Shown: positions 1,314 to 64,000 of the stretch, in pieces | Layout of the letters: every line of letters starts with the position of its first letter | Position numbering within the stretch: position 1 is the stretch's first letter | Source of the DNA: a virus | Taxonomy: Duplodnaviria > Caudoviricetes | Length of the DNA: 64,000 nt | Strand: one strand, 5' to 3' | Virus record (IMG/VR): IMGVR_UViG_3300028888_000002 | Program-made: the position numbers and the translations under genes | The notes under the pieces: generated by a model | The model's input: the letters and a program-made list of their open reading frames with translations, nothing else | Databases searched by the model: none | What the model was told of the DNA's origin: nothing

Positions 1314-1337
1314 ATTATCCTCGGTTTTGTCGGTTAA

Positions 1338-7257: not shown

Positions 7258-7281
7258 TGTGCTATCCTCGGTTTAGGGTTA

Positions 7282-12555: not shown

Positions 12556-12870
12556 TTAAATCTTTTCGTGTTCAATGCGGTAGATTTCGGCTTCCACCTT
12601 TTCCATATAGGTGTCCGTGACTTCGCCAACGGTTACGTCCTTAATGCCCGCAAACGCAGCTTCAAGAGCAGTCTTGCATAAGGCTGCAACTTCGGCAGAC
12701 TTGAAAGCGTAGGTTGCGTGATACCTGCTGCAAAAACCGCCATTGTAGCAGAACTTTGCGTCAGCGAACTTCTTTGCGATACGCCCCACTTTGGAAGCGT
12801 AATTGATAATGTAGGTGACGCTAACCGTAAACGGGTAGGTCTGCAATGTTTGGTAGTCGGCAGTAATCAT
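12556..12870 (-). CDS. hypothetical early protein
   Basis: First gene after strong promoter; leader GACAACCAC..AACCGAGG; start MITADY. Confidence 0.7.
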   Translation of the reverse strand: MITADYQTLQTYPFTVSVTYIINYASKVGRIAKKFADAKFCYNGGFCSRYHATYAFKSAEVAALCKTALEAAFAGIKDVTVGEVTDTYMEKVEAEIYRIEHEKI

Positions 12871-12914
12871 TTTGGAAGCCTCGGTTAAAGTGGTTGTCTT
12901 TCCTTTACACCCTA

Positions 12915-12958
12915 AATATAACAAAATACCTGTGTGGTGTCAACAGGTATTGTTAAAA
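12915..12958 (-). promoter_or_regulatory. sigma70-type promoter with inverted-repeat operator
   Basis: TTGACA-N17-TATATT; AATACCTG..CAGGTATT flanks the -35. Confidence 0.8.
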
Positions 12959-23017: not shown

Positions 23018-23031
23018 AGGTGTTCCTCGGT

Positions 23032-23319
23032 TTAGCGTTCAAACATTTTATTCCAGGCAGGGTGCATTTCATACTTCGCCTTGAACTGCGATTTGGTAAG
23101 GTTCGGAACATTCAACCAATAGGTGCAGTTCCGTTCGTGCAAATACTTCGGAATGAAATCATATCCCCCGCTAGGGGAAATGGTCTTCACGTCAAAAAAC
23201 TTCGTCTTATTGTGACGAACAGCAAGGAAGGGTTCCCCCAAATCGGTGAGAACCACAATTTCCTTATGGGCGGGAGCCGTTTCAATCGGCTCCCAAACTT
23301 TCTTACGGGATTTAGACAT
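23032..23319 (-). CDS. hypothetical protein (WxPIETAP family)
   Basis: WEPIETAP..TYW pattern. Confidence 0.65.
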   Translation of the reverse strand: MSKSRKKVWEPIETAPAHKEIVVLTDLGEPFLAVRHNKTKFFDVKTISPSGGYDFIPKYLHERNCTYWLNVPNLTKSQFKAKYEMHPAWNKMFER

Positions 23320-23584
23320 TAGTCACCCCCATTTGCTTATACAGAACTGCGTAAATCGTCCCTTCAACCGCAGAGTGTTCGCCCAAGATACGTGTAGCGA
23401 CACACTTCTTACCCGACGTAGTTTCGTAAACAGAAACGTAGTAGAGGCAAGTAATACCTGCTTTACCCTTTTTGGTAGTGAACGACCTGCCGTCAATCGT
23501 GAACTCAAAAATTCCGTTGGCATCGTCGCATTTCGTCATAACGATATTCTTGTAGAACCAATCGTTAAATTCGTTCCTATTCAT
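23312..23584 (-). CDS. hypothetical early protein
   Basis: First gene after operator promoter; leader GACAACCACTTCAACCGAGGATAGC. Confidence 0.7.
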   Translation of the reverse strand: MNRNEFNDWFYKNIVMTKCDDANGIFEFTIDGRSFTTKKGKAGITCLYYVSVYETTSGKKCVATRILGEHSAVEGTIYAVLYKQMGVTNV

Positions 23585-23628
23585 TTTGCTATCCTCGGTT
23601 GAAGTGGTTGTCTTCTCTTTACGTCTAT

Positions 23629-23670
23629 AATATAACAAATTACCTGCTCTTTGTAAACAGGTAATTTAAA
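23629..23670 (-). promoter_or_regulatory. sigma70-type promoter with inverted-repeat operator
   Basis: TTTACA-N17-TATATT; AAATTACCTG..CAGGTAATTT. Confidence 0.75.
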
Positions 23671-23681
23671 ATTTTTTAAAA

Positions 23682-27622: not shown

Positions 27623-27636
27623 TGTGCTATCCTCGG

Positions 27637-27960
27637 TTAGATATGGTTTTCCTTGACGAAAGTGCTGCTAGAGTAAATGGACGAAGCGATTGTGTTCACT
27701 GCGGTCAAGAGCGTGTCCTTGTCGTCAAGCTGTGCAGGAACCTTGAAATCCAGGATAGCCGTTCCGTTGACGGGACAATCGCTCAAATCCACGGGAACAC
27801 CGTTAGCCCTAAAGGAATGTGCAGTGAAACTCCAAACGCCTGCAAAAATGTCATAGCTTGCGTCAATGTAGAAAGCTGCGTTACGCTTCGTCGCCTTTGC
27901 GAACCACTGCTTGACCTGCTTTCCGTTACGGGTATATTTGAGAATTGTTTCTACTGCCAT
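27637..27960 (-). CDS. hypothetical early protein
   Basis: First gene after operator promoter, start MAVETI. Confidence 0.7.
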   Translation of the reverse strand: MAVETILKYTRNGKQVKQWFAKATKRNAAFYIDASYDIFAGVWSFTAHSFRANGVPVDLSDCPVNGTAILDFKVPAQLDDKDTLLTAVNTIASSIYSSSTFVKENHI

Positions 27961-27997
27961 TGGGCTATCCTCGGTTATTGGTTGTCTTTCTGCGTAT

Positions 27998-28042
27998 AAT
28001 ATAACAAAATACCTGCCGTTCGTCAACAGGTATTGTTAAAAT
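27998..28042 (-). promoter_or_regulatory. sigma70-type promoter with inverted-repeat operator
   Basis: TTGACG-N17-TATATT; AATACCTG..CAGGTATT. Confidence 0.8.
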
Positions 28043-29702: not shown

Positions 29703-30338
29703 TCACTTAATGAGTTCCTTCGGCAAAAGGCGTTCCCTGGTTTCGGGGTAGCGACAAATCAAGTAGCCACGGAGCATAGCGTAATAGACCTTGTAAAGAC
29801 CCTGTGCAGGACCGTAAATGTGCGTATCAATTTGGAAGAACGCACTCAAGAACGGCAGCAGCGGATTGTCTGCGTAACGCTTGACGGGTAAATCCTTCGT
29901 GTATTCGTCCATACACGGGAACATCACCAACGGACGTTCCGTTATAGCGACAACGCAAATGGGGGTTTTCTTATAGGCGTAGGTAAACTTCGTTACGCTT
30001 TTCAGCTTCTCAACGTTTTCAGTCAAGCCCAAACTCTTTGTAAGGCTGCGGGCGAAGTCTGCCAAGAAATTGAACTGTTCCTCGGAGCAGTCCATAAGGC
30101 TTTCAAGAATGCCCTGGGGCTTTTTATTACGCAAGCGTTCAAGCAGGCACTTGCCCAACTTCGTGACCTTGTAACCCCACGGGTCCGTTTCTTTCTTTGC
30201 GGGCTGTGCCTTGTCTTCAATATCCTTGCGACGCTTTACGCTCTTTTCAAGAGTCTTGCGACGTTCTGCAATCCTTTCAAAGACAGCCTTGTATTTAGGC
30301 TTTTCGTCTTTTACGGGTTTCTGTTTTTTGGTAGCCAT
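29703..30338 (-). CDS. hypothetical protein
   Basis: 211 aa, AAAACCGAGGA RBS, basic N-terminus. Confidence 0.7.
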   Translation of the reverse strand: MATKKQKPVKDEKPKYKAVFERIAERRKTLEKSVKRRKDIEDKAQPAKKETDPWGYKVTKLGKCLLERLRNKKPQGILESLMDCSEEQFNFLADFARSLTKSLGLTENVEKLKSVTKFTYAYKKTPICVVAITERPLVMFPCMDEYTKDLPVKRYADNPLLPFLSAFFQIDTHIYGPAQGLYKVYYAMLRGYLICRYPETRERLLPKELIK

Positions 30339-30555
30339 TTCGTTTCCTCGGTTTTTGTGAAAAGTTGTATGAATAAGTTTGTCCGTTGTCGGACAAGCAG
30401 CCTGCCGTAACGTCCAGGCATTGAAAGGTCCGTGAAACTTCGTCGTCCACCTGGGGTTCTACAAGTTTACGGAGTTCCGTTTCGGACAAGGTGCTGCTGT
30501 TCGCAGACACCTTAACCGTCACGGTGTAAGTCTTTTCAAAGACCAATTTAGCCAT
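30295..30555 (-). CDS. hypothetical protein
   Basis: Start MAKLVF. Confidence 0.5.
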   Translation of the reverse strand: MAKLVFEKTYTVTVKVSANSSTLSETELRKLVEPQVDDEVSRTFQCLDVTAGCLSDNGQTYSYNFSQKPRKRNGYQKTETRKRRKA

Positions 30556-34463: not shown

Positions 34464-34500
34464 ACACTTAATCCTCGGTTGAATGGTTCAACGTAAGAAT

Positions 34501-34600
34501 AATATAACTAATTACCATACCGCAGTCAACAGGCGTTGTTAAAATTTTTGTTTACATTTTACTTACGCTATTGCTAAACATTGGATATTTTGTTATATTG
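34501..34600. promoter_or_regulatory. divergent promoter pair at strand switch
   Basis: Minus: TTGACT-N17-TATATT with degenerate operator; plus: TTGCTA-N17-TATATT. Confidence 0.75.
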
Positions 34601-43359: not shown

Positions 43360-43379
43360 TAAAAATCGTAAGAAATTAT

Positions 43380-43422
43380 TTTAACAATACCTGTTGACAT
43401 TCAGCAGGTATTTTATTATATT
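43380..43422 (+). promoter_or_regulatory. sigma70-type promoter with inverted-repeat operator
   Basis: TTGACA-N17-TATATT; AATACCTG..CAGGTATT. Confidence 0.8.
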
Positions 43423-43453
43423 GTAGGTGTAACCACAACCGAGGATAGCCCCA

Positions 43454-44305
43454 ATGGAACTCAAAAGAACCTACATTCGCACAGACAAGAACGGCACAAA
43501 GCACTACGACGTGACATACCGCTGCGAGTGGTGCAGGGGCACGGGCATTCGCCCACAGTATATGCACGTTTTCGGGGGTGTATGCTTCTACTGTGACGGT
43601 TCGGGCTTCCATACCCGTGAAGTCAAGGAATACACGGAAGAATACGCAGCAAAGTTGGAAGCGAAGCGTAAGGCAAAGCAGGAAGCCAGGGAAGCCGAAG
43701 AACAAGCTATCCGTGATGCCTGGAACCCGCTTGATGAAGTCAAGAAGCAGGGCTTTGACGCAGTTATGGGCATTGTCGTGGACGCAAAGACGGGCAAGCC
43801 CGTGGAACGCCACGAAAAGGGCAGCAGTTGGCTCTATTTCACGGCAAAGTGCAAGAACATTTGGAACCTGTATTTCACGGACCTGGACAACCCCGTTATC
43901 GCAGAAGACAAGAACTACCAGGTCGTGCCGATGCCCTGGAACGAAGTGTTCGTCCCGAACTACACCGCTATGACATTGCAGTGGAACGAAAATATAATGC
44001 AGACGTTCCTGGACAACCACTACTACGGCTACCCGAAGTGCCCCAAAAGCGACGCTGTGGGCAAGGTTGGCGAACGCTTGACCGTTGATGCCACCATCAA
44101 GGAAATCAAGTCCTACGACACGTTCTACGGCACCAAATACTTCTACACGTTCCAGGACCGCAACTTCAACCTGCTCCGTTGGGAAACGAGCAAGGACCTG
44201 GAAATGGAAGTCGGGACCGCTGTAAAGCTGACGGGGACCGTCACGAAGCACGACTCCGACGGTTTCGGCTCTTACACCAACCTTAACCGCTGCAAGGTCG
44301 CATAA
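43454..44305 (+). CDS. DnaJ-type zinc finger + OB-fold-like protein
   Basis: CEWCRGTG, CFYCDGSG; C-terminal VGKVGER..GTVTKH..T.LNRC. Confidence 0.7.
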   Translation: MELKRTYIRTDKNGTKHYDVTYRCEWCRGTGIRPQYMHVFGGVCFYCDGSGFHTREVKEYTEEYAAKLEAKRKAKQEAREAEEQAIRDAWNPLDEVKKQGFDAVMGIVVDAKTGKPVERHEKGSSWLYFTAKCKNIWNLYFTDLDNPVIAEDKNYQVVPMPWNEVFVPNYTAMTLQWNENIMQTFLDNHYYGYPKCPKSDAVGKVGERLTVDATIKEIKSYDTFYGTKYFYTFQDRNFNLLRWETSKDLEMEVGTAVKLTGTVTKHDSDGFGSYTNLNRCKVA

Positions 44306-44338
44306 CATATTTGTAACAATATAGTAAGGAACAGAACA

Positions 44339-44659
44339 ATGAGAAGTCTTGAAGAATGTATCACAAAGTTGGCTTACAGCGGTTGCCCCTGGAAACCCGA
44401 AAATATCGCCAACGTCCAGGTCCATACAATATATGGTGGCGACTCCGAAGTTGACCCCGAAGATATGGGGTTCCACCCGAACGGGGGCTGCGGTTGCGTA
44501 ACCCTGGGCGACGAGGAAATTTTCGGAATCCGCTGCGACCACCTTATGTGGTTGACGGGGGACCACGAATACCTGGGTGACGGCAAGGACGGTGTTCTGC
44601 TGCTAGGGAACCACAAGGGGACGCTGTTTATCAAATACCTGTGCGAAGAAACCCCCTAA
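44339..44659 (+). CDS. hypothetical protein
   Basis: AAGGA RBS, 106 aa. Confidence 0.6.
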   Translation: MRSLEECITKLAYSGCPWKPENIANVQVHTIYGGDSEVDPEDMGFHPNGGCGCVTLGDEEIFGIRCDHLMWLTGDHEYLGDGKDGVLLLGNHKGTLFIKYLCEETP

Positions 44660-44785: not shown

Positions 44786-45652
44786 ATGACCGAACCTACA
44801 ACCACGAACCGAACAACTAGAAAAGGTTACGACCCTACCGAAGAATGGCTATCAGTTGCAGAATCCCTTGAAGTTTACCTAGAAGAAGCAGCACAGCCAT
44901 CCGCCCGATACGAATACAAGCCCGACGGCATTAAGCGAATACCATTCACGAACAAGCAGTGGATTAGCTTCACGGGGACAGAAACACCCCCAGGTTCGGG
45001 TTTGGTGTGGCTGAAACCTGGGAACCATTACAGGGCAAAGGACAGGCTAATCCACGTAATACCCTACAAGTATTACAGGGGCTTTGAATGGCGAATTATT
45101 TGGTGTATGGTCCGTAACACCCTGCTTTGCAAGCAGTTAGCGTCCGTGTATGTCCGTCTTGAAGCCGTAAAGGACACAATCGCCTTCTACCTTAAAGACT
45201 ACACGGACTGCCCCCTAAACCTCATTGAGCGGGTATCAAGTGCAATCGGGTTTACGGCTATGACTATAATAGACTCCCATTCGGAATGCACAGCCGAAGA
45301 CCTGGCAGGCATTGAAAGCAAGTATGCGACTACAAGGGGAGCGGTTGACTATGAATGCCGTCAAGACCTGTGGAAAATGCTTAAAAACCACGGAATTGGG
45401 TCATTGAGAACCCGAAAGCAACAGGAAGCATTGATTGACAAGGTTCTAACCCTCCCGAAATTCGCCCATTTGAGCAACAACACGAAGACATCGCTTCTGT
45501 TTAGATTAAGGCGAAACCACCTGCTGAAACCCGACACCGACAAGATTAAAGACAGGGTTTCGGATATAAAACTGAAACAATTAAGCAATATACCGCTTAC
45601 AGCCTCGGACCGCCAATACGTCCACCGACACAAGGATTTATTCATTATTTAA
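44786..45652 (+). CDS. hypothetical basic protein, candidate replication initiator
   Basis: 288 aa; immediately upstream of repeat-rich non-coding region; function inferred. Confidence 0.5.
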   Translation: MTEPTTTNRTTRKGYDPTEEWLSVAESLEVYLEEAAQPSARYEYKPDGIKRIPFTNKQWISFTGTETPPGSGLVWLKPGNHYRAKDRLIHVIPYKYYRGFEWRIIWCMVRNTLLCKQLASVYVRLEAVKDTIAFYLKDYTDCPLNLIERVSSAIGFTAMTIIDSHSECTAEDLAGIESKYATTRGAVDYECRQDLWKMLKNHGIGSLRTRKQQEALIDKVLTLPKFAHLSNNTKTSLLFRLRRNHLLKPDTDKIKDRVSDIKLKQLSNIPLTASDRQYVHRHKDLFII

Positions 45653-45654
45653 GC

Positions 45655-46060
45655 TAGAATCCCCGAATAATTCGGGGATTACTTTGTATGCGAAAACGTG
45701 ACATTTTTTTATTCCGTATAGGATATAAGGCTACCATACCGAGAAAAAAAATGTCACGCTAGAATCCAGGATAAAAGCTGTGGGCACGAAATGTTCGCTT
45801 CGCTCACATTATCGTGCCTATCACGCCCTTACGGGCGTGATGGTAGAGAAGATTTGGATTTACAGGTCTTTAAGGCAGGTGAAGTTCCTGGCTCCGTGAA
45901 AGGTGAGCCAAAGGGGGGAGCAAAGCGACCCCCGACGTGAACCTTTCCGAGTAGGGAATATGGGTGGTGGTTTGGGTTGGGTGAAAATTGTGTGAAAATG
46001 AGTGTCAAGAGCGGGGAGTAGCAAAAGGACCGTATGCGTGAGTTTAAAAATGTTACTATG
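45655..46060. other. putative replication origin (non-coding, multiple inverted repeats)
   Basis: AATCCCCGAA palindrome, CGTGACATTTTTTT/AAAAAAATGTCACG IR, hairpins with TTCGCTTCGCTC and GAGCAAAGCGA loops, G/T-rich tract. Confidence 0.55.
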
Positions 46061-46147: not shown

Positions 46148-47950
46148 ATGGCTGAAAGCGGACTTGCAGGATTAAGCACGGCAGACTTGTATAAGGCTGC
46201 TGCAATAGCCGAGGGCTATGAATCCGTCCCTGTTGACATTGAAACGTTCATTAACGACCCGTTCTACATTGGCGAAATCTACGGTGAGGGTCGTGTCTAT
46301 CCCTATTGGTTGGACAAGCTGAAAAAGCTGTTCCCGAACCCGCTTTACAGCCCGTTCATTGAAGTCTGCATTACGGGGTGTATCGGTGCGGGTAAGTCCA
46401 CGGTGTCCATTATCGGGGTCCTTTATGACCTGTATAGGGTGACGCTGCTGAAAGACCCGCACAAGAAATTCAAGCTAATACCGACCACGCCTATCGTGAT
46501 TACGCTCATTACCGCAACTATGGACCTGGCGGGTGCCGTCCTTGCGGACCAACTTATAGACGTTATTGGCTGCTCCCCGTATTTCCGTTCAAAGCTGCTT
46601 CCAGGCAAGGGCGACAAGATAGATGAAGAAATGTTTCCCCACCACGTAGGTATCGCCTACGGTTCCCGTATGCGTCACTCTTTGGGCAAGGCTGTCATTG
46701 GGGCTATCATTGACGAAGCGAACTTCCAAAACGCAGTAGCGGACCAGGCGGTGCAGAACTACAACAGCATCCGTCGTCGTATGTTTTCCCGTTTTATGAC
46801 TAAAGGCGGTGAAGTGCCCTGCCGTATGTGGGTCGTGTCGTCCCGAAACGAAAGCACGTCGTTCCTTGAAAGCCATATTGACGCAGAACGCAACAACCCG
46901 AAAGTCGCTATCTTTGAGCCTGCCATTTGGGAAGTCCAGGCACACAAGGGTATTTACAGCGGGGCGACCTTCCCCGTCTTTATCGGTTCCGACATTGAGC
47001 AGCCGAAAGTCATTACAAGCGACGCAGAACTTGACGACTACCAGGGTCGTGTTATCCAGGTCCCCGTTGAATACCGAAAGGACTTTGAGAACAATTTGCC
47101 TGGTGCCTTGCAGGATTTGGCGGGCGTGGCTACCCGTAACGGTGTGAACCTAATCTACAACGTGGAAGCCCTGGATAGGTCAATGTGCCTGGAAAACTGT
47201 ATGACTACGGACGAACTGCACTTGACCTTGAACGACAACGACCAAATCGCTGACTTCTACAAGGGGAACCTTCCGAAAGGCAAGTATTACGTCCATTTGG
47301 ACGGTGGCTTGCGTAGCGACCGTTTCGGCTTCGCTATGAGCCGTGTCACGGAGCAGATAACGGTCACGACCACTTCTGCCGTTAGCGGTGTGGAAGTGAG
47401 CAAGATTAGCCCCGCAGTAGAAACCCCGCTTGTGTTCGGTATCAAGGCGTTGCCAGGGTCCGAAGTCCCGTTTTGGAAGGTCCGTGTGTTCCTGGTTTAC
47501 CTGCGTAGCCAGGGCGTGAACATAGCCTTGATTACGTGCGACGGCTACCAATCTGCCGATATGATGCAGCTACTCACGAAGTTGGGATTTAACGTGAAAT
47601 ACGCTTCTGTGGATAAGACCAAAGACCCGTATTTGAAGTTGAGCAGCAACATTCTTTTGAGTTTGATTAAAATGGCGAAGTCCCGTATTTTGAGGACCGA
47701 ACTAATCAACCTGCAAAACCTACCGAAGAAGATAGACCACCCTGCTACAATCGTCGTGGACGGGAAGCAGGTTGCGGGTGGCAAGGATATTGCGGACGCT
47801 GTGGCTTCTAGTTCCTACGAAGCTATCTGTGCTTCTATGACCCTGGGTGCGTCGTCGCTGCTCCAAATGCAGCAGTCAAAGCCTACCCAAATGACTATGC
47901 ACCAACGCCAGGAATACGTTATGGAACACTTTTTTAAAATGAAAAGGTAG
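46148..47950 (+). CDS. terL: terminase large subunit
   Basis: YPYW, Walker A TGCIGAGKST, Walker B IIDEANF, nuclease YVHLDG, ITCDGYQS, KIDHP..KDIADAV. Confidence 0.92.
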   Translation: MAESGLAGLSTADLYKAAAIAEGYESVPVDIETFINDPFYIGEIYGEGRVYPYWLDKLKKLFPNPLYSPFIEVCITGCIGAGKSTVSIIGVLYDLYRVTLLKDPHKKFKLIPTTPIVITLITATMDLAGAVLADQLIDVIGCSPYFRSKLLPGKGDKIDEEMFPHHVGIAYGSRMRHSLGKAVIGAIIDEANFQNAVADQAVQNYNSIRRRMFSRFMTKGGEVPCRMWVVSSRNESTSFLESHIDAERNNPKVAIFEPAIWEVQAHKGIYSGATFPVFIGSDIEQPKVITSDAELDDYQGRVIQVPVEYRKDFENNLPGALQDLAGVATRNGVNLIYNVEALDRSMCLENCMTTDELHLTLNDNDQIADFYKGNLPKGKYYVHLDGGLRSDRFGFAMSRVTEQITVTTTSAVSGVEVSKISPAVETPLVFGIKALPGSEVPFWKVRVFLVYLRSQGVNIALITCDGYQSADMMQLLTKLGFNVKYASVDKTKDPYLKLSSNILLSLIKMAKSRILRTELINLQNLPKKIDHPATIVVDGKQVAGGKDIADAVASSSYEAICASMTLGASSLLQMQQSKPTQMTMHQRQEYVMEHFFKMKR

Positions 47951-49385: not shown

Positions 49386-49772
49386 ATGGCAACAAAGCGT
49401 GATAGGGTAAATCGTGTAAAGGGCTTGGTCTATCTACCGATAGACGGTTCCCGCCTGGTTAAAGGCGAGCGGGTCACTTTGACGCACGTCCAGGAAGCTG
49501 ACATTTTCCCCGACGTGATTAAGGACCCTATGGAAATGCGGGAGCCGATAAATGGCGACGCTGTTGGCGACGCTATCTTTGACGCTATGAAGGAACCGAC
49601 CTATATTCCCGAAGTCATAGGGGACGACGAGTCGGACGAAGAAAACCCTATCGCTTTGGGATTTGAAGACGGTAACTTTAACATTTTGCTAGACACGGGT
49701 GCGTCGTCCTACGACGACGATTACAGCGAAGACGATTACCTGGTGTGCGACCCTATGGAGGGCGAAACCTAG
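49386..49772 (+). CDS. acidic hypothetical protein
   Basis: 128 aa preceding fibre gene. Confidence 0.6.
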   Translation: MATKRDRVNRVKGLVYLPIDGSRLVKGERVTLTHVQEADIFPDVIKDPMEMREPINGDAVGDAIFDAMKEPTYIPEVIGDDESDEENPIALGFEDGNFNILLDTGASSYDDDYSEDDYLVCDPMEGET

Positions 49773-49785
49773 ATTTGAGGTTGTT

Positions 49786-52236
49786 ATGGCAGCGAAGAAA
49801 GACATTGCAGTGACACGAATTTATCAGTTGGAACAGGGCGTTTACAACGGCAATTCCTATGTTGTGATTGATGACGGTGTTCGTAACCATAAACTCAAAA
49901 AGTTGCCGTTGTCGCAGATTAAGGGACAGAAAGGCGACAAGGGTGACAAGGGCGACAAGGGCGATACGGGTGCCCAGGGTCCGCAGGGTGAACAGGGTCC
50001 GCAGGGCGTTCAAGGTGAACAGGGCGTTGAGGGTGTTTCCCCTACTGTGACTATTGAATCTGTTGCCCCGTCGGGTGATACTCCGCAGGGCTACGAAGTC
50101 ACGATTACCGATGCCGAACACCCGCAGGGACAGACTTTTGAAGTCCACGACGGACGCACTTCTTTTGCGGATTGGCGTAGGGCTTACGCCAACCAACTTG
50201 CTCCGTATGCTGACAATAAGTTTGATTTGAATAGCAGTTTGGTTTCTTACGACGGTAGCAGCGACGATATTTATGTGGACGATGACGACCACAAGCTGTA
50301 TTTCAAGGCGGGTGTTTATGTTGTTATCGCCACGGTCATAGTTGAAAACACGTCCACTGCAAGTGCCTACAAGGAAATATCCGTGAATCCTGGTTCGGGT
50401 ATTGCAGGTCTTATTTGGCAGCAGGATTGGTCCATTGGTTCCAATAAGGAACGCAGGACGCTCGCCTACATTCTTGACGTTGCTAACGACGATACGCCAC
50501 TTACTCTTACGGTTGACGGCTTTACCGACGTTGAAGGTCATACGGAACTTTCCCGTATTGACTGTTATAAGTTGGCGGGTGCCCTTGAACCTGGTGGCGG
50601 TGGTGGTGCTTCGGTCACGATTACACCGACGTTCGGGAATGGGGTAAAGATTGCGGACTTCACCATTAACGGAACTAGCGGGGTTATCAATATCCCGCAT
50701 ACGCACGTTATGTGTGACGCTACGGGTTCGGGTGCTACCGACGAAAGCGTGTTACCGCAGGCAGGCTCCGAAGATACTTTGTATTTTGTCAAGGAATCCG
50801 TTTCGTTGGGAAGCAGGTCGCTTGACAGGTATAACATTTACATTTGGCGTGACGACAAGGTTCCTTCGCAGGACCCGTCCGCAGTATTCCCCGATAACTC
50901 AAAGTATGTTCTTGTGGACGAGGCTTCGTATTCTTCCACTGAAATCATTTCTATGTTCGGTGACGTGGGTGCTGAAATAGCAGCTATCGTTGAAAGCCGT
51001 ATTCTTTATACGGTTGAACTTGGGTCTATCACGACTCAAAAGCAATTTGAGTTTAATGGTTCTGTTGGCGGTTTTGTTTGGACTTTGTTTAACCCCAATA
51101 TGGATATGGAAGTCGTGGCGGGTGATACCCCTACGAACCTTGCGTTTGCTACTACGGATAATATCCCTATTAACGAATCGGGTAAGTATCTGTGTATCGG
51201 TATTTACGAATATGACCTGGAACATAACACGTTTTCTTATGTTGCTGACACGGGAAATATCGTTTCAACGATAACTGACAAGGGTGCAAGTAACAAGGGC
51301 TTGCAGGTTGTTCAAATAGCTAATGTGAAGCAGGACACTACAACGGGTGAATACAAGCAGCGTTTGTTGTCCGCTAAACTTTATGCGGTTGTGTTTGCGT
51401 CCAACATTAACCCGTTAAAGGTTGCGGGTTGCCCGTTTGAAAACGCAATCTACACTGTTCCGTCGTTGGGTTTGGCTAACTTAAATTATTCAATAGACCC
51501 CTCGGCTATGGCTACTAGCTTGCCGTCGTTTAGCGGGACTGAAGGCGATACACCGAATGGTTCCTTGTCGGAATTTCATATCTTTACGGCATTGACTAAC
51601 GTGCAGATTGTCCTACCGCCTGCACCTCCGCCACCGCCCGTCCCGACTTCCCCGTTTGTGACAATGCCCGTCACTACTTCTACGGGTGATTACACGGTAA
51701 ATCCGACGAAAGTTACTTACGATTCTAGTGAGTTTGACAACATTACTTTGGACACGTCTAGTGGCGTTCTGTTGCAGAAGATTGTTCCGCAGGCTGATGT
51801 CAATATCACCGCCTGGACGATTGTTGATACTAGCCCGAACGCTGTTACGAACAACCCGCCAGGTGAAATGGTCTATGACGAGAACTTCCAGGAAATTTGC
51901 GGGCATAACGCCACGTTGCAGGCTTCGCTAGACTCCGAGGGTGTTATGCCTGGGACGGGAAACCAGGCGTATGTGCATAGGTTCGTTGTTGACAACAATC
52001 AATCCATTCAGTTGTTGGCGGGTCATACCTATTGGTTCCCGATTATTTCCAATCCGAACCTTGCTGAATGGTGGTATGCTACCGTTTCGGAAAATGGCAC
52101 GACCGTGTATAATCCGACAACGAGCGGTGCTGCTATTAGCAGCTTGTATTACTTTGCTACCGAGGGTATCAAACAGACTATGCCCGTCGCACGTATGACC
52201 CTGGAAGACGACCAAAACAATACTTACGATATTTAA
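49786..52236 (+). CDS. collagen-repeat tail fibre protein
   Basis: (GXY)n GDKGDKGDKGDTGAQGPQGEQ, GVSPTV, poly-Gly and poly-Pro linkers. Confidence 0.8.
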   Translation: MAAKKDIAVTRIYQLEQGVYNGNSYVVIDDGVRNHKLKKLPLSQIKGQKGDKGDKGDKGDTGAQGPQGEQGPQGVQGEQGVEGVSPTVTIESVAPSGDTPQGYEVTITDAEHPQGQTFEVHDGRTSFADWRRAYANQLAPYADNKFDLNSSLVSYDGSSDDIYVDDDDHKLYFKAGVYVVIATVIVENTSTASAYKEISVNPGSGIAGLIWQQDWSIGSNKERRTLAYILDVANDDTPLTLTVDGFTDVEGHTELSRIDCYKLAGALEPGGGGGASVTITPTFGNGVKIADFTINGTSGVINIPHTHVMCDATGSGATDESVLPQAGSEDTLYFVKESVSLGSRSLDRYNIYIWRDDKVPSQDPSAVFPDNSKYVLVDEASYSSTEIISMFGDVGAEIAAIVESRILYTVELGSITTQKQFEFNGSVGGFVWTLFNPNMDMEVVAGDTPTNLAFATTDNIPINESGKYLCIGIYEYDLEHNTFSYVADTGNIVSTITDKGASNKGLQVVQIANVKQDTTTGEYKQRLLSAKLYAVVFASNINPLKVAGCPFENAIYTVPSLGLANLNYSIDPSAMATSLPSFSGTEGDTPNGSLSEFHIFTALTNVQIVLPPAPPPPPVPTSPFVTMPVTTSTGDYTVNPTKVTYDSSEFDNITLDTSSGVLLQKIVPQADVNITAWTIVDTSPNAVTNNPPGEMVYDENFQEICGHNATLQASLDSEGVMPGTGNQAYVHRFVVDNNQSIQLLAGHTYWFPIISNPNLAEWWYATVSENGTTVYNPTTSGAAISSLYYFATEGIKQTMPVARMTLEDDQNNTYDI

Positions 52237-59581: not shown

Positions 59582-60091
59582 GTGCATCGTATATACATTG
59601 GCATTGACAATGGCACGTCGGGAACTATCGGTTGGCTTGGCGACGGCATTGAAACGGGTTTCGCTGAAACCCCTAAATTTGTAGAACAGTCCTACACGAA
59701 GGCTGCGAAGAATATCAGCCGTATTAAGCGTTCCGCTTTGCGTGAATTGGTCTTGAAGATTTTGGGCGATAATCAGCCGTGCGAAGCAATCGCAGTCCTG
59801 GAACGTCCCCGTGTGAACCCGAAGCAGTTTGTCACGACGCTTTCGGCTATGCGGGCGTTGGAAGCGACGCTTTGTGTTTTGGAAGACCTGGGTGTTCCGC
59901 TTACCTATACGGACTCCCGTCCGTGGCAGAAGAAAATGTTGCCCCAGGGCATAAAGGGTTCTGCCGAACTCAAGAAAGCCTCAAAGGAAATCGGTTGCAG
60001 ACTTTATCCGCAGTTTGCGGACGCTATCCGTAAGCATAAGGACGCAGACGGTTTGCTTATTGCTGAATGGGCTAGTAGGGAGCGTCTATGA
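59582..60091 (+). CDS. RuvC-like Holliday junction resolvase
   Basis: YIGIDNG..G, VLE, PWQK, DADGLLIAE. Confidence 0.8.
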   Translation: MHRIYIGIDNGTSGTIGWLGDGIETGFAETPKFVEQSYTKAAKNISRIKRSALRELVLKILGDNQPCEAIAVLERPRVNPKQFVTTLSAMRALEATLCVLEDLGVPLTYTDSRPWQKKMLPQGIKGSAELKKASKEIGCRLYPQFADAIRKHKDADGLLIAEWASRERL

Positions 60092-61059
60092 GTAGTATAA
60101 TTGAGCAGCAGGATTTGGTGGCAACCCCTGTTGACATTGAAACGTTCGTAAAGGACCCGCAGTATCTAGGGAATATCGTTGGCGATGGTATTTACCCGTA
60201 TTGGTTGGAGCAGTTCAAGAAAATCTATGCTGCCTCCGATGGTTCTCCGTTCTTTTTGTCGGAGTATAGCGAAGTCCTGTTTGCGGGTGCTTTGGGGGCG
60301 GGCAGAAGTTTTGCTGCTATCGTAGGGTTCCTGTATGAACTCTATATCCTTACGCTTGTAAAGGACCCCCACAAGAAATGGACCCTGCTGCCGACTACAC
60401 CGATTGATTTGGTGGTCATTACTGCGGACGCAAGCAACACGCTTCTTTCCGACCGTATCTTGGACTGCATTAACGTTTCCCCGTATTTCAAGTCTATTTT
60501 GCTGCCGAATAAGGGTTCTGCTCTTGAATCCAATATGTTCCCGAATCACGCAGGTCTTGCTGTTGTTGCTAACAATCGGTTCTTGTTGGGACGTGCTATT
60601 TTCGGTGCTATCGTGGATGATAGTTGCTTCCCGCAGGAAAAACCACTGTGCGATTTATGGTTTAAGAATATATCCGAACTATACACTTGTTCGTGGCGAC
60701 GTGGGTTTTCCAGGTTTGGCTGTGCAGGGACTACACCGCTTCGTATGTGGGTAGCTGTGGCTTCAAGTTCTCCCTTGTATGCCCTGGTTGATGAACGTAG
60801 AAAACGTGGCTATGGCATATACTATGTTTCTCCGTCTATTTGGGAAGCACAGGCGTTTAAGGGTGTCTATTGCGGTGATACGTTCTCCGTGTTTGTCGGT
60901 TCCGATACGGAACCCCCGAAGATTGTCACGGATATAAACGACCTTGTGAAATATAAGGACAAGATTATCCAGGTCCCTGTTGAATATCACCAGGATTTTG
61001 AAAAGAATATCCGTGATGCTGTTCAAGAATTGGCGGGCATCCCTGTCGCAAAGTTTTAA
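60088..61059 (+). CDS. truncated terminase paralogue (ATPase domain only, degenerate motifs)
   Basis: Shares PVDIETF, YPYWL, KDPHKK..PTTPI, SPYF.S.LLP, MFP.H, IWE.QA.KG.Y.G.TF.VF.GSD, IQVPVEY..DFE.N with TerL; ends before nuclease domain. Confidence 0.85.
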   Translation: MSSIIEQQDLVATPVDIETFVKDPQYLGNIVGDGIYPYWLEQFKKIYAASDGSPFFLSEYSEVLFAGALGAGRSFAAIVGFLYELYILTLVKDPHKKWTLLPTTPIDLVVITADASNTLLSDRILDCINVSPYFKSILLPNKGSALESNMFPNHAGLAVVANNRFLLGRAIFGAIVDDSCFPQEKPLCDLWFKNISELYTCSWRRGFSRFGCAGTTPLRMWVAVASSSPLYALVDERRKRGYGIYYVSPSIWEAQAFKGVYCGDTFSVFVGSDTEPPKIVTDINDLVKYKDKIIQVPVEYHQDFEKNIRDAVQELAGIPVAKF

Positions 61060-61100
61060 TCACAAAAACCGCTGTGCATTACAGCAAAGGAAACACTAAA

Positions 61101-61703
61101 ATGGCTACTAAAAAAGTCGCACCGAAAACCGAAACCAAAACTGCTCCGAAGAAGGAAGTCAAGTCTGCTGCCCCGAAAAAGGAAGGGAAGACCGCTCCGA
61201 AGAAAGAAGTCAAGGTAGCTCCGAAGAAGGAAGTCAAGTCCGAAATTCCGACTACTTCTGCCCCGAAGATTATGGCTAAAATGGTTCCTGCAAAGAAGAC
61301 CGCTCCGAAGCAGGACCAGGACTACGTTGTTCTTGAACACGACCTGCTTACGAAGAATTACACGATGATTATTCACGAAGCAAATTTCAAGTTCAATGCC
61401 CCGCACCATTTTAAGGTTATCGCAGCACAGCCCGACACTGACGGTGAACACAAGGGACAGAACCGTGTCGTTGGTATCGTGAACTTCCAGGAAGGTCCGA
61501 TTAAGGAAAACGGTGTGAACGGTGTTGCCAACGAAGACTTGCTTGGTATGGTTCTTTGCCGTTTGGAAGGCTTCCAAAACAGCGAATACAAGTGCCGTGA
61601 AAACGCCCTTGCTATTACGAAGATTGAAGAAGCCCTTATGTGGCTCCGCAAGAGAACTAACGCCCGTGTGAAGCGTGGTGTTGAAGGCACGTCAAAGGTT
61701 TAA
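61101..61703 (+). CDS. Tad1-family anti-Thoeris/CBASS sponge with APKK-repeat N-terminal tail
   Basis: FQEGP.KE.GVNGV..EDLL..V..RL..FQ....CRENA.A.T..EEALMW...R...R..RGV.GT. Confidence 0.8.
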   Translation: MATKKVAPKTETKTAPKKEVKSAAPKKEGKTAPKKEVKVAPKKEVKSEIPTTSAPKIMAKMVPAKKTAPKQDQDYVVLEHDLLTKNYTMIIHEANFKFNAPHHFKVIAAQPDTDGEHKGQNRVVGIVNFQEGPIKENGVNGVANEDLLGMVLCRLEGFQNSEYKCRENALAITKIEEALMWLRKRTNARVKRGVEGTSKV

Positions 61704-61719
61704 TTGGGGGAAATGCAAA

Positions 61720-62013
61720 ATGGCTAAAAAGAAGACCGTGAAGACTGCTCCCGTAAAGAGTCTTGCAGAAGTTATCGTTGACCTTGAACTTGAATTTGAC
61801 GAAATCGCAGGGAGGGTTGAAAAGATTGACGCTTCGTTGGACGATGACGACTTCTGTGATAGAATTGGTATTGAACATACTAACTTGCTTATTCAGCAAC
61901 GCAACGCTATGTTGGAATATCGTGACAAGTTGGGCATTCGCCTAGCCTTGCTCCGTCGTGCGAACGCAAAGGCTGTAGAAGCCGAAATTAAGGAAAAGGC
62001 GGTTAAGGCTTAA
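61720..62013 (+). CDS. T4 Y16Q / crAss001_48-like helical protein
   Basis: E.DE...R..K....L....F......LL..Q..AM..Y...L..R pattern. Confidence 0.65.
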   Translation: MAKKKTVKTAPVKSLAEVIVDLELEFDEIAGRVEKIDASLDDDDFCDRIGIEHTNLLIQQRNAMLEYRDKLGIRLALLRRANAKAVEAEIKEKAVKA

Positions 62014-62729
62014 TGGCTGACTCCACGCAAGATACGCTCGCACACCGTCAAATGGTCGTGGATTTCGCTACGGACTTCTGCACGTCCCTGCTTGAACGTG
62101 CAGACGGCTATGGCGACAAGACTATTTCCGACGCTGCCCTGGATTTCTGTAATGACATAATGGATAGGGCATACCGCCACGACGAATCTAAACTGCACGA
62201 ACCCGAAAAGGAACGTTTTGATTACGTCGGGACGCACCAACATTTGTCAAAGCACACCTACGGTTCCGACGAATATAAGAAGTCCCTTGAATACCTCGGA
62301 CCCGCATTGGACCACCACTATAAAGAAAACGACCACCACCCGCAGCACTTCCCCAACGGCATTAGCGGTATGAACCTTATGCAGTTGGTTGAAATGTGGC
62401 TTGATTGGCTTGCTGCTTGTAAGCGAAACAAGAATGGCAATATCTATCAATCCCTGGAAGTGAACAAGGACCGCTTCAAGATTTCGGACCAACTTTATAA
62501 CGTCCTGCTAAATCAAGCTGACGTGGTTGAATCCGACAAACGTGGCGACGGTTCTACGAACCTGTTTGGTCTTGTTGAAATGTGGTTGGACTGCGTGGCA
62601 GCTAACAGCCGTGACGAGTCAAAAAGCATTCACAGCATTGTTGAATCCGACATTGACCGCACACTGCTGTCCGAACAACTGTATAACATTATTTGCAATA
62701 CAGCGAATACATTTGAACCGCAAGGATAA
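62013..62729 (+). CDS. DUF5662-like HD-domain protein with duplicated C-terminal module
   Basis: H, RHDESK, HHYKENDHHPQHF, LVEMWLDW. Confidence 0.75.
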   Translation: MADSTQDTLAHRQMVVDFATDFCTSLLERADGYGDKTISDAALDFCNDIMDRAYRHDESKLHEPEKERFDYVGTHQHLSKHTYGSDEYKKSLEYLGPALDHHYKENDHHPQHFPNGISGMNLMQLVEMWLDWLAACKRNKNGNIYQSLEVNKDRFKISDQLYNVLLNQADVVESDKRGDGSTNLFGLVEMWLDCVAANSRDESKSIHSIVESDIDRTLLSEQLYNIICNTANTFEPQG

Positions 62730-62731
62730 CT

Positions 62732-62866
62732 ATGGCTAAAACCAAAGAAACTATCTGCAACAACTGTAATTCAAAGTCCTACTGTGCGAACAAGGCTTTG
62801 GGCGTGACGGATTGTATCAATTACAATAAGTTCCCGAAGCCGTCCGCAGACGAATTTAAACGATGA
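62732..62866 (+). CDS. small Cys-rich protein (44 aa)
   Basis: AAGGA RBS; CNNC..C..C; stop overlaps next ATG. Confidence 0.55.
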   Translation: MAKTKETICNNCNSKSYCANKALGVTDCINYNKFPKPSADEFKR

Positions 62867-63153
62867 ACGCATACGCTAACAAGCTGCTTGCAAGAGCCGA
62901 GGGAATTTGGCACAATCTAGGGTTGGCACTTCAAGAGAAGAAATCCCTTGAACACGACGGCTACACGTCCATATCGCTCTATTTTGACCGTATCACACCC
63001 GCCCAGGCTGAAATGCTTGTTTCTCAAATGAGCAAGGCTTTCCGCAGGGCTAACGTGTATTGGAAAGAAGACGAGCGTGGGACGAAGATTTGTGTTGAAA
63101 TCCCGCCTATGGGTTCGGGGACCCCCGTTCCTATGAAACGCAGTTGCAGGTAG
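62863..63153 (+). CDS. hypothetical protein
   Basis: 96 aa. Confidence 0.6.
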   Translation: MNAYANKLLARAEGIWHNLGLALQEKKSLEHDGYTSISLYFDRITPAQAEMLVSQMSKAFRRANVYWKEDERGTKICVEIPPMGSGTPVPMKRSCR

Positions 63154-63174
63154 TAACCACTTTGTTTATATTTT

Positions 63175-63311
63175 GGGAGCAGGACGGTTTGTAGCCATTC
63201 CGTCTTGTTACTTCCATAAGGGTGGAATAGCCCTACGTCGCTACTTTGGTAGCAGGCTCATTGGCGTGGGGCGGGGCAGCGTAGTTCTCGGTTTTCTACG
63301 CTGCCTTTTTC
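63175..63311 (+). ncRNA. candidate four-hairpin small RNA
   Basis: Own promoter TTGCAG-N17-TATATT (63144-63172), four consecutive stems, terminal GGCAGCGTAG/CTACGCTGCC + T-run; no ORF. Confidence 0.65.
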
Positions 63312-63340
63312 TTGACAGCCACCAGGTAATTTGTTATATT
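63312..63340 (+). promoter_or_regulatory. thyX promoter with operator half-site
   Basis: TTGACA-N17-TATATT containing CAGGTAAT. Confidence 0.7.
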
Positions 63341-63366
63341 TAAGGGACCTAAACAAGAGGTTCAAA

Positions 63367-64000
63367 ATGCCCATTACGATTATCAGTGTTACCGAAAACC
63401 CGCTTCAACTCATAGGTGAGTCCGCAGGTATTTGTTGGAATGCACCCGTTGACGACCCGCAGAAGAATATCCTTCGTGCGATTTCCTGCATTGAAGCGGA
63501 CCACGGGCGTGTCCTGGAATATCCCGATATTACGATTGTGATTGACGGTAAGTCTGCCCGTGCGTTCCGTGAACTCTATACGCACATAGGTGGGGGACCT
63601 ACCCGCTTGCAATCGTCCACCCGATATGTTGACGAAAGCAACTTTAAGTATTATACGCCCCCGTCTTGCCAAAAGGACGGTGTGCGTGAAGTTTACGAAA
63701 AGGGTATGAAGCAGGTTGCGGAATTTTACGGGGAGCTTATTGAACTAGGTGTTCCCCGTGAAGACGCAGCTAACGCCCTGCCGTTGGGTATGGACTCAAA
63801 GGTGGTGTGGAAGATTAACTTGCGGTCCCTGGTGAATTTTATGAACAAGCGTCTGTGCAGCAGGGCACTGCTTGAAATCCGACAGTTTGCAAACGAACTG
63901 CGTTCTATGCTTATGGGCAGGAACGTGGAATGGATGTGGATTTGCGAAAACCTGTTTGTTCCGTCCTGCGAACGTTACAAGTTCCTTAACAAGAAAATGT
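63367..64000 (+). CDS. thyX: FAD-dependent thymidylate synthase (partial)
   Basis: Hand-translated: HGRVLEY, SARAFRELYTH..TRLQSSTRYV, EDAANALP, NLRSLVNF...RLC.RA..EIR. Confidence 0.88.
   Translation, partial: MPITIISVTENPLQLIGESAGICWNAPVDDPQKNILRAISCIEADHGRVLEYPDITIVIDGKSARAFRELYTHIGGGPTRLQSSTRYVDESNFKYYTPPSCQKDGVREVYEKGMKQVAEFYGELIELGVPREDAANALPLGMDSKVVWKINLRSLVNFMNKRLCSRALLEIRQFANELRSMLMGRNVEWMWICENLFVPSCERYKFLNKKM

Follow-up and report, generated by a model that had tools for sequence, protein, structure and literature searches.

What do the 213 nucleotides (nt) encode that separate an open reading frame (ORF) of 96 amino acids (aa; 62863-63153) from the ATG of thyX (63367) in the virus record IMGVR_UViG_3300028888_000002? 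The stretch of this Caudoviricetes record that we analyzed, 64,000 nt long and called the window throughout, carries in this gap an element of four stacked hairpins, followed by a gene whose product belongs to the Pfam family Thy1 (E 9e-37). An earlier reading made from the bare letters, hereafter the sequence-only reading, had proposed that the element is a stand-alone, multivalent small RNA (sRNA) whose loops act against translation initiation on phage or host mRNAs. To our knowledge, roles have been assigned to few small RNAs of virulent or jumbo phages, and hardly any such RNAs have been described from uncultured rumen phages. We find that the gap holds a conserved, structured plus-strand RNA that ends in a terminator, exposes three invariant motifs and represents a previously uncatalogued RNA family. 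We tentatively favor the view that it is a trans-acting phage sRNA that would pair with the ribosome-binding sites (RBSs) of one class of phage genes and thereby lower or time their translation.

A conserved four-hairpin RNA

On the plus strand, the segment 63178-63311 folds with a minimum free energy (MFE) of -64.9 kcal/mol (z = -6.96), and none of 200 dinucleotide-shuffled sequences was as stable. In a GC-corrected scan of all 130-nt segments on both strands, the element was the top structural outlier of the 64 kb. The fold comprises four hairpins (H1 to H4; Table 1), the last of which is an intrinsic terminator that is visible in the fold and absent from the list of a terminator scan, because its loop exceeds the loop length that the scan allows. 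The hairpins and terminator described in the sequence-only reading were thus borne out, whereas the promoter placed ahead of them proved weaker than claimed. A kissing contact between the H1 loop (AGCC) and the H3 bulge (GGCU) was considered and dropped, since it would involve only 3-4 base pairs (bp) and is inconsistent among variants.

Homologues were collected through relatives of the upstream 96-aa protein (22 found, 64-99% identity), whose contigs were searched with a covariance model built from the window's own fold. The model placed the element downstream of the 96-aa-protein gene in nearly all fetched contigs, with scores of 54-172 bits, and pattern scans added three further loci. Two of the 31 matches of an exact-pattern scan of metagenome contigs were real and the rest mostly due to chance, and a genome pattern scan gave one real copy among the matches listed, the others being chance matches. 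BLAST of the element, and of the 6 kb around it, returned no match among GenBank phage records. Two more distant viral contigs with thyX synteny (L007 and L008) have no RNA upstream of thyX; covariance-model matches elsewhere in these contigs (24 and 15 bits) were weak, lacked the conserved motifs and were not counted. Overall, 15 distinct homologous sequences of 130-140 nt were obtained from rumen and gut phage contigs.

When folded singly, 13 of the 15 sequences form the same four hairpins. In a model-guided alignment of the 15 variants, compensatory changes on both sides occur at 31 of 43 base pairs and 98.4% of cells pair canonically, compared with 38-58% of cells and 4-8 covarying pairs in slid controls, in which the 3' partners were shifted by 1-3 columns. 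Covarying pairs are found in H1 (10/10), H2 (4/6), the outer stem of H3 (8/10) and H4 (7/12). This alignment was fitted to the covariance model and so favors the structure; we regard the structure as secure because the contrast with the slid controls is large and the single-sequence folds are independent. A consensus fold derived from a MAFFT alignment alone mispaired H3, because MAFFT is not structure-aware, and was replaced by the model-guided alignment with its slid controls. Frequent G-U pairs would read A-C on the opposite strand, and since many of them are valid only on the plus strand, they identify plus as the strand of the RNA. Homologue lengths differ by 1-2 nt, which breaks the frame of a 56-aa ORF spanning the element (63173-63343) and excludes it as coding. 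The RNAs at L016:2826-3159 and, with the same coordinates, in L018, two contigs that come from different samples, have ~190 nt inserted within H2, with H1, H3, H4 and all three motifs intact; this extra sequence represents either an expansion domain or a mobile insert of small size.

Conservation is concentrated in the single-stranded parts, where 44% of columns are invariant versus 15% of paired columns among the 15 variants. The sequence-only reading had anticipated conserved stems with variable loops; the stems do covary, but the loops are more conserved than the stems. Within the H1 loop, G..AUU is fixed, and all variants but one retain GCCAUU (14 of 15, with the true H1 of L016 taken into account). 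The most conserved motif is GCUCAUU of the H3 bulge, invariant in 15/15, which has a CAUU core in common with the H1 loop. Terminator loops are normally free to vary; in this one, CUCGGUU is invariant (15/15), while 7 of 12 H4 stem pairs have changed on both sides, and the T-run is also among the letters fixed in the homologues. The pattern expected of a conserved seed in a trans-acting, base-pairing sRNA is therefore present, with GCCAUU, GCUCAUU and CUCGGUU fixed while the stems covary, and so is the Rho-independent terminator expected of such an sRNA, in the form of a 12-bp G+C-rich stem followed by a T-run.

Searches against known families returned no counterpart. Rfam 15 gave no match at gathering thresholds across the whole window, and at E values up to 10 the element and two divergent homologues yielded chance-level matches only (best 19 bits versus thresholds of 40-70). 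For the two divergent homologues the best match was RF02791 (CcsR/NfeR1), far below threshold at 15.8-16.5 bits versus a gathering value of 65.3; membership in this family was rejected on that score and on the absence of the CCUCCUCCC motif from the 15 variants. C4 antisense RNA (RF01695) was not among the matches at E up to 10, and ARAGORN found no tRNA or transfer-messenger RNA in the window. The family is thus undescribed, as the sequence-only reading had supposed, but the two further members it had proposed, at 33.2 kb and 44.7 kb, fell away: neither covariance model finds a second copy in the window, even with filters off, and for that reason we do not regard these elements as relatives. 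Of the two, the one at 33.2 kb is a terminator-like hairpin and the one at 44.7 kb a hairpin that belongs to the leader of gene 44786.

Judged from sequence, the window is part of a rumen or gut jumbo phage of ~215 kb, because gut metagenomes of sheep, cattle, goats and other animals contain nearly identical DNA and because a related RNA-bearing record, G004, is 215.7 kb long and judged 99% complete. The viral record nearest to the window is G001, which is 101.6 kb long with an estimated completeness of 47%; over 0.9 kb (window 62800-63700) the two share 93% identity. Relatives encode a Fibrobacter succinogenes major paralogous domain protein adjoining tail-fiber genes. One RNA copy (144 bits) lies on an 88.7-kb contig (L153, JAFYKO010000122.1) binned in a 'Clostridia bacterium' metagenome-assembled genome from water-buffalo cecum. 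L153 probably belongs to a phage and was carried along into the bin; its binning conflicts with the Fibrobacter-type domain of the relatives, and we draw no host from it.

The terminator loop and a signature ribosome-binding site

The complement of the conserved terminator loop CCUCGGUU is AACCGAGG, and this word ranks first of all 65,536 8-mers in the initiation regions of both genomes examined, occurring in 8 of 89 genes in the window and 19 of 361 in G004. Initiation regions were taken as -25 to +15 around the starts of genes called by a simple ORF plus Shine-Dalgarno rule. Of the word's 11 copies in the window, about 10 are placed 5-9 nt upstream of a start codon. In sequence, then, the terminator loop complements the signature RBS of the lineage exactly, which upholds the antisense relation proposed in the sequence-only reading. 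Pairing of the window's own loop, UUCUCGGUU, with AACCGAGGA includes one G-U; seven variants have UCCUCGGUU as their loop and are perfectly complementary over 9 nt. AACCGAGG is over-represented in both records that bear the RNA, with 15 and 34 copies against none of the reversed control word, and it stands at chance (6 and 6 copies) in two more distant records that have no convincing RNA copy.

Genes with the AACCGAGG site are first cistrons behind near-consensus sigma-70-type promoters, as seen for 13 of 21 such genes versus 7 of 340 others in G004 (p = 6e-14). In the window, a near-consensus promoter lies directly ahead of 3 of 9 AACCGAGG genes versus 0 of 80 others. The arrangement recurs as promoter-leader cassettes, on the minus strand at 12864-12957, 23578-23671, 27954-28040 and 34480-34560 and on the plus strand at 63312-63345. 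Each consists of TTGACA-17-TATATT, often flanked by the inverted repeat ACCTG...CAGGT, and a leader of ~35 nt ending (ACAACCAC)UUUAACCGAGGAUAGC-N-AUG; the window's repeat families D1, D3 and D5 are these cassettes. From the complementarity and this distribution, the RNA probably controls translation of the promoter-proximal AACCGAGG genes.

For the H1 loop, complementarity to the start context AAUGGCU has moderate support. This word, a common start context, ranks 5th of 16,384 7-mers in the window's initiation regions and 69th in those of G004. The H1 loop alone is predicted to pair at -9 kcal/mol or lower with 12 of 89 (window) and 43 of 361 (G004) initiation regions, against 3.5 ± 2.9 and 13 ± 8.3 for shuffled H1 loops. 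The loop sequences and matches quoted in the sequence-only reading are correct, with the H1 loop complement AAUGGCUAC present at starts 61101 and 30338 and AAAACCGAGGA ahead of starts 1313 and 30338. Gene 29703-30338 had been singled out as matching two loops at once, and both of its sites, at the RBS and at the start, are indeed present, four bases apart. This best dual-site candidate has no DNA homologue in G004.

Two observations concern single sites. In a divergent relative (L217:15585-15615), a 61-aa gene after an NlpC/P60 gene carries AACCGAGGAUUGAAAA-AUGAGC and is the sole case seen that combines complements of the terminator loop and the H3 bulge. Within 43376-44566 of the window, the longest ORF is a 396-aa minus-strand frame with a GTG start, probably a shadow; the plus-strand ORF 43454-44305 is preceded by AACCGAGGAUAGCCCCA-AUG, and its orientation matches that of its neighbors.

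Table 1. Positions of the predicted RNA, its parts, adjacent promoter sequences and candidate target sites in the window
Feature	Position	Strand	Remarks
Predicted small RNA, ~134-135 nt	63178..63311	+	5' end inferred from -10 element; 3' end from terminator T-run
Hairpin 1 (H1)	63178..63209	+	10-bp stem; 12-nt loop UUUGUAGCCAUU at 63188-63199
Hairpin 2 (H2)	63212..63227	+	6-bp stem; least conserved part
Hairpin 3 (H3)	63230..63272	+	10-bp outer stem, 5-bp inner stem, 9-nt 3' bulge AGGCUCAUU at 63254-63262
Hairpin 4 (H4), intrinsic terminator	63273..63311	+	hairpin to 63307; 12-bp G+C-rich stem; loop UUCUCGGUUUU at 63285-63295; T-run to 63310
Putative -35, TTGCAG	63144..63149	+	3/6 consensus matches; overlaps stop codon region of upstream ORF; read from sequence
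-10 element, TATATT	63167..63172	+	5-6 nt 5' of first paired H1 base; spacer of 17 to TTGCAG
thyX promoter, TTGACA-17-TATATT	63312..63340	+	11/12 matches plus extended -10 TG; outside the RNA, marks downstream boundary
Candidate target, AACCGAGG RBS of gene 29703-30338	30346..30353	-	start AAUGGCUAC also complements H1 loop; predicted loop duplexes -13 to -14 kcal/mol
Candidate target, AACCGAGG RBS, start 27960	27969..27976	-	promoter-proximal gene
Candidate target, AACCGAGG RBS, start 27622	27631..27638	-	
Candidate target, AACCGAGG RBS	23593..23600	-	in promoter-leader cassette (D3, D5)
Candidate target, AACCGAGG RBS, start 23017	23025..23032	-	
Candidate target, AACCGAGG RBS, start 12870	12879..12886	-	promoter-proximal gene
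Candidate target, AACCGAGG RBS, start 7257	7266..7273	-	winged-helix protein
Candidate target, AACCGAGG RBS, start 1313	1319..1326	-	
Candidate target, AACCGAGG RBS, start 34463	34473..34480	-	promoter-proximal gene
Candidate target, AACCGAGG RBS of ORF 43454-44305	43437..43444	+	

Transcription, genomic context and rival explanations

A TATATT(T) or TACATT hexamer is found ~3-9 nt 5' of H1 in every variant, among several unrelated upstream contexts, and persists when the RNA is parted from its usual upstream gene by an inserted TnpB gene (L063) or 405-aa gene (L012). Downstream neighbors vary among homologues (thyX, DUF7487, an unnamed gene, TnpB), and in 7 of the 15 types, the window and six others, a promoter stands between the terminator and the next gene. 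In the window, this thyX promoter starts directly after the terminator and is much stronger than the RNA's own upstream promoter. On these sequence features, independent transcription of the RNA is likely. A riboswitch or attenuator leader would be expected at a constant position in the 5' untranslated region of one regulated gene family; the element has no such position, since the downstream genes differ and a promoter intervenes in those seven types.

Mobile genes have entered the locus at differing points. TnpB genes (IS605 OrfB/Cas12f-like) lie beside the RNA at L016/L018:3286-4488 and L063:717-1919, and a 405-aa gene without a Pfam family does so at L012:2848-4065, all on the minus strand; in L016, an insertion truncates the downstream gene. 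The RNA locus appears to be an insertion hot spot. The RNA was also considered as a TnpB omega (reRNA) guide RNA, and this was rejected: most homologues have no nearby tnpB and, where one is present, it lies on the opposite strand and at differing positions.

Several results weigh against a stand-alone sRNA acting on phage RBSs. The -35 hexamer TTGCAG is poor (3/6) and unlisted by a consensus promoter scan, and it is not conserved in homologues from other upstream contexts. In five types (L013, L017, L012, L014 and L016) no promoter separates the T-run from the RBS of the next gene, which starts 5-10 nt further on, as would suit read-through or a leader; the next gene in these types must depend on read-through. 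Among metatranscriptome contigs from four runs, one spans the whole region and the others cover upstream genes and not the element, so that the RNA-library contigs hold nothing specific to the element and no start, end or level can be read from them. Within the element, a single base, a change from G-U to G-C, distinguishes the closest relatives, G001 (= L005) and L006, from the window, but this near-identity sits in a low-divergence block that runs from 63094 to ~63800 and includes thyX; being part of a larger block almost free of differences, it is not evidence of selection. The co-occurrence of the RNA and AACCGAGG compares two related with two distant, about half complete, non-independent records.

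The energetic and dual-site results point the same way. In a loop-only energy test the terminator loop was not significant (p = 0.27 in the window, 0.05 in G004), and when stem bases were part of the test, pairing of the three conserved loop motifs was in no case significantly better than that of shuffled loops, the H2 loop alone being nominally better (p ~0.04). A dual-site signature across the AACCGAGG genes amounts to a modest enrichment of A at -1 and of CAAUG, and longer complements of H1 or H3 are not enriched in these genes. For the H3 bulge, the best-conserved motif, no enrichment of the complement was found in phage initiation regions or genomes, and the 'anti-AUG' role assigned to it by the sequence-only reading was not sustained. 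The broader proposal of a multivalent anti-initiation RNA therefore stands in part: it is supported by the rank of the terminator-loop word and by the H1 loop, which beats shuffles, but not by the H3 bulge or the first energy test. When loop complementarity is compared with chance, the terminator loop passes by word rank and the H1 loop by energy, whereas the terminator loop by energy and the H3 bulge do not.

Some of these observations would suit an element that acts in cis, either as the structured 3' end of the upstream operon, combining stabilizer and terminator, or as a 5' leader or attenuator gating read-through, with loops that serve as protein-binding sites or processing signals. The element always follows the same 83-96-aa gene unless a mobile gene has been inserted between them, its -35 is weak, the five promoterless types place the next RBS just past the T-run, and one study's RNA-library contig that includes the upstream gene ends at 63172, a weak hint. 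However, there is no constant regulated gene, because the downstream genes differ and a strong promoter intervenes after the terminator in the window and six other types, and the RNA remains intact with its -10 when a TnpB or 405-aa gene separates it from the upstream gene. No conserved antiterminator pairing was seen on inspecting the 15 variants and MFE folds, an inspection made with no dedicated alternative-structure computation, and a cis role leaves the exact complementarity of the terminator loop to the signature RBS unexplained. We consider a cis element unlikely. It also seems improbable that the RNA acts in trans mainly on partners other than phage mRNAs, either by targeting host mRNAs or by serving as a decoy or sponge for a protein or nuclease of the host or the phage; one option would be an anti-defense mimic of the anti-Shine-Dalgarno sequence plus a CAU anticodon loop. 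Such partners would accommodate a most conserved motif, GCUCAUU, that has no enriched phage complement, as well as the CAUU core of two loops and the typical counter-defense neighborhood, with Acb2/Tad1-hairpin, PF21825 and DUF5662 genes nearby and Tad3 in a relative. Yet the neighborhood by itself is weak evidence, the putative likeness to tRNA-Met extends over 7 nt, and the RNA has no likeness to a known decoy RNA in Rfam.

That the locus encodes no functional RNA at all is barely credible. The signal would then come from chance hairpins, from a small ORF (63173-63343, 56 aa, or short minus-strand ORFs at CAT triplets) or from a DNA-level signal. The 56-aa frame does span the element, and the minus strand reads both CAUU motifs as ATG and the terminator loop as an RBS, but the minus-strand peptides would be 5-15 aa long and are not conserved, and their RBS would be ~27 nt from the ATG. 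Compensatory change at 31 of 43 pairs, G-U pairs on the plus strand only and 1-2 nt indels that break any frame all stand against it, and the covariation leads us to exclude a non-functional locus.

The genes around the element were examined as well. The upstream 96-aa protein has no Pfam family and no significant PDB match (best E 0.007, a designed protein). Its AlphaFold model (predicted local distance difference test, pLDDT, 84) shows a helix-two strands-helix-two strands order and gives no hint of RNA binding, and the protein was set aside as a partner of the RNA. Further upstream, 61098-61703 encodes Lys-rich KKEVK-type N-terminal repeats joined to an Acb2/Tad1 hairpin domain at the C terminus, whose score of 27 bits equals the Pfam threshold, 61720-62013 a PF21825 protein (crAss001_48-related, 'Sequestin') and 62013-62729 a DUF5662 protein. 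The gene cluster 61098-62729 has a counter-defense flavor, and Tad3 is encoded a few genes downstream in a relative that lacks the RNA. A 323-aa gene (60088-61059), immediately upstream of the Tad1-like gene, is a partial paralogue of a 600-aa gene (46148-47950); the paralogy appears as direct repeats D6 and D8 at 73-77% DNA identity, and neither gene has a Pfam family. Upstream of the 600-aa gene lies the second most structured region of the window (45631-45940, both strands), which has several long hairpins, includes an inverted repeat with 45-nt arms at ~45690-45760 and is unrelated to the element. An 845-aa protein (gene 49699-52236) contains collagen-like GDK triplet repeats at 49921-49974 (Pfam Collagen, at threshold) and is probably a fiber protein.

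Proposed mechanism and comparable systems

If the RNA is a trans-acting sRNA directed at the phage's own RBSs, transcription would start from the -10-type promoter just upstream of H1, and the RNA would be released as a ~135-nt sRNA ending at its own intrinsic terminator. The terminator loop, (U/C)CUCGGUU, would pair with AACCGAGG(A), the extended Shine-Dalgarno sequence at the head of one class of mRNAs of the phage itself; these would mostly be first cistrons behind strong host-type promoters and presumably early genes. Pairing would occlude the RBS, so that translation of the AACCGAGG class would be lowered or timed, and a further contact, between the H1 loop (GUAGCCAUU) and start regions of the form A-AUG-GCU, may contribute. 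Repression as the direction of control, like its timing, is a guess, made because pairing at a Shine-Dalgarno sequence usually acts in this way.

The terminator loop CCUCGGUU also resembles the tail of 16S rRNA, which we take to be CCUCCUUU, with two bases changed. It is a long shot that the RNA and the AACCGAGG leaders form a phage-private, orthogonal Shine-Dalgarno/anti-Shine-Dalgarno pair, in which the RNA would mimic the reader of initiation sites and sort, time or protect early phage mRNAs, or would act as a decoy for host nucleases aimed at the anti-Shine-Dalgarno sequence or tRNA-Met. In the same far-fetched scheme, the two further loops would present CAU like the initiator anticodon.

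As an sRNA directed at RBSs, the phage RNA resembles RNAIII of Staphylococcus aureus (hairpins 7, 13 and 14), RsaE/RoxS and CcsR/NfeR1, in which stable hairpins show conserved pyrimidine-rich anti-RBS loops. In RNAIII, one such loop sits in the terminator hairpin. Control of several mRNAs through a common site is a further likeness, which for the phage RNA is predicted only. The phage RNA has no homology to CcsR/NfeR1, and its motif is CUCGGUU in contrast to the 'CCUCCUCCC' C-run. Unlike these anti-Shine-Dalgarno sRNAs, it has a loop that matches the lineage-specific AACC extension of the Shine-Dalgarno sequence and not the generic core, it has two further conserved motifs ending CAUU, and it is encoded by a lytic-type jumbo phage, with that phage's own promoter-proximal genes as predicted targets.

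Phage-encoded precedents exist in the c4 RNA of P1/P7 (RF01695) and the CI RNA of P4, whose exposed loops pair with two short phage-mRNA sites, cover the RBS and silence phage genes. The RNA described here is likewise a phage-encoded small RNA, with loops predicted to pair with short RBS-region sites of phage mRNAs. In contrast, c4 and CI act on one temperate-phage operon and are processed from a longer transcript, whereas the complementary site here is spread over ~10 (window) to ~20 (G004) initiation regions genome-wide. The logic of such a distributed site is closer to that of phage T4, in which the endoribonuclease RegB and the repressor RegA recognize a short sequence in many early-mRNA initiation regions (GGAG for RegB) and shut off translation. 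The likeness lies in the tie between the AACCGAGG class and strong host-type promoters; RegA and RegB are proteins, whereas the recognizing agent here would be an RNA loop.

A role for a terminator loop itself has been described in Escherichia coli, where regulation of fepA by SdsR, RseX and ArrS needs the loop of the sRNA's own intrinsic terminator (PMC11979758). Those loops were judged likely to work by a means other than base-pairing and to act on a structure situated far upstream within a long 5' untranslated region (PMC11979758), in contrast to the 9-nt complementarity to the RBS itself that is predicted for the phage RNA.

Overall, the element represents a well-supported new RNA family with a falsifiable target rule, in which one loop corresponds to one signature RBS that marks promoter-proximal genes, and this pairing rule can be checked in a laboratory host without cultivating the phage. 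If it is true, the phage would switch a whole temporal gene class at translation initiation by means of an RNA, rather than a protein as with RegA/RegB of T4, and the odd AACC extension on the Shine-Dalgarno sequences of this lineage would be explained.

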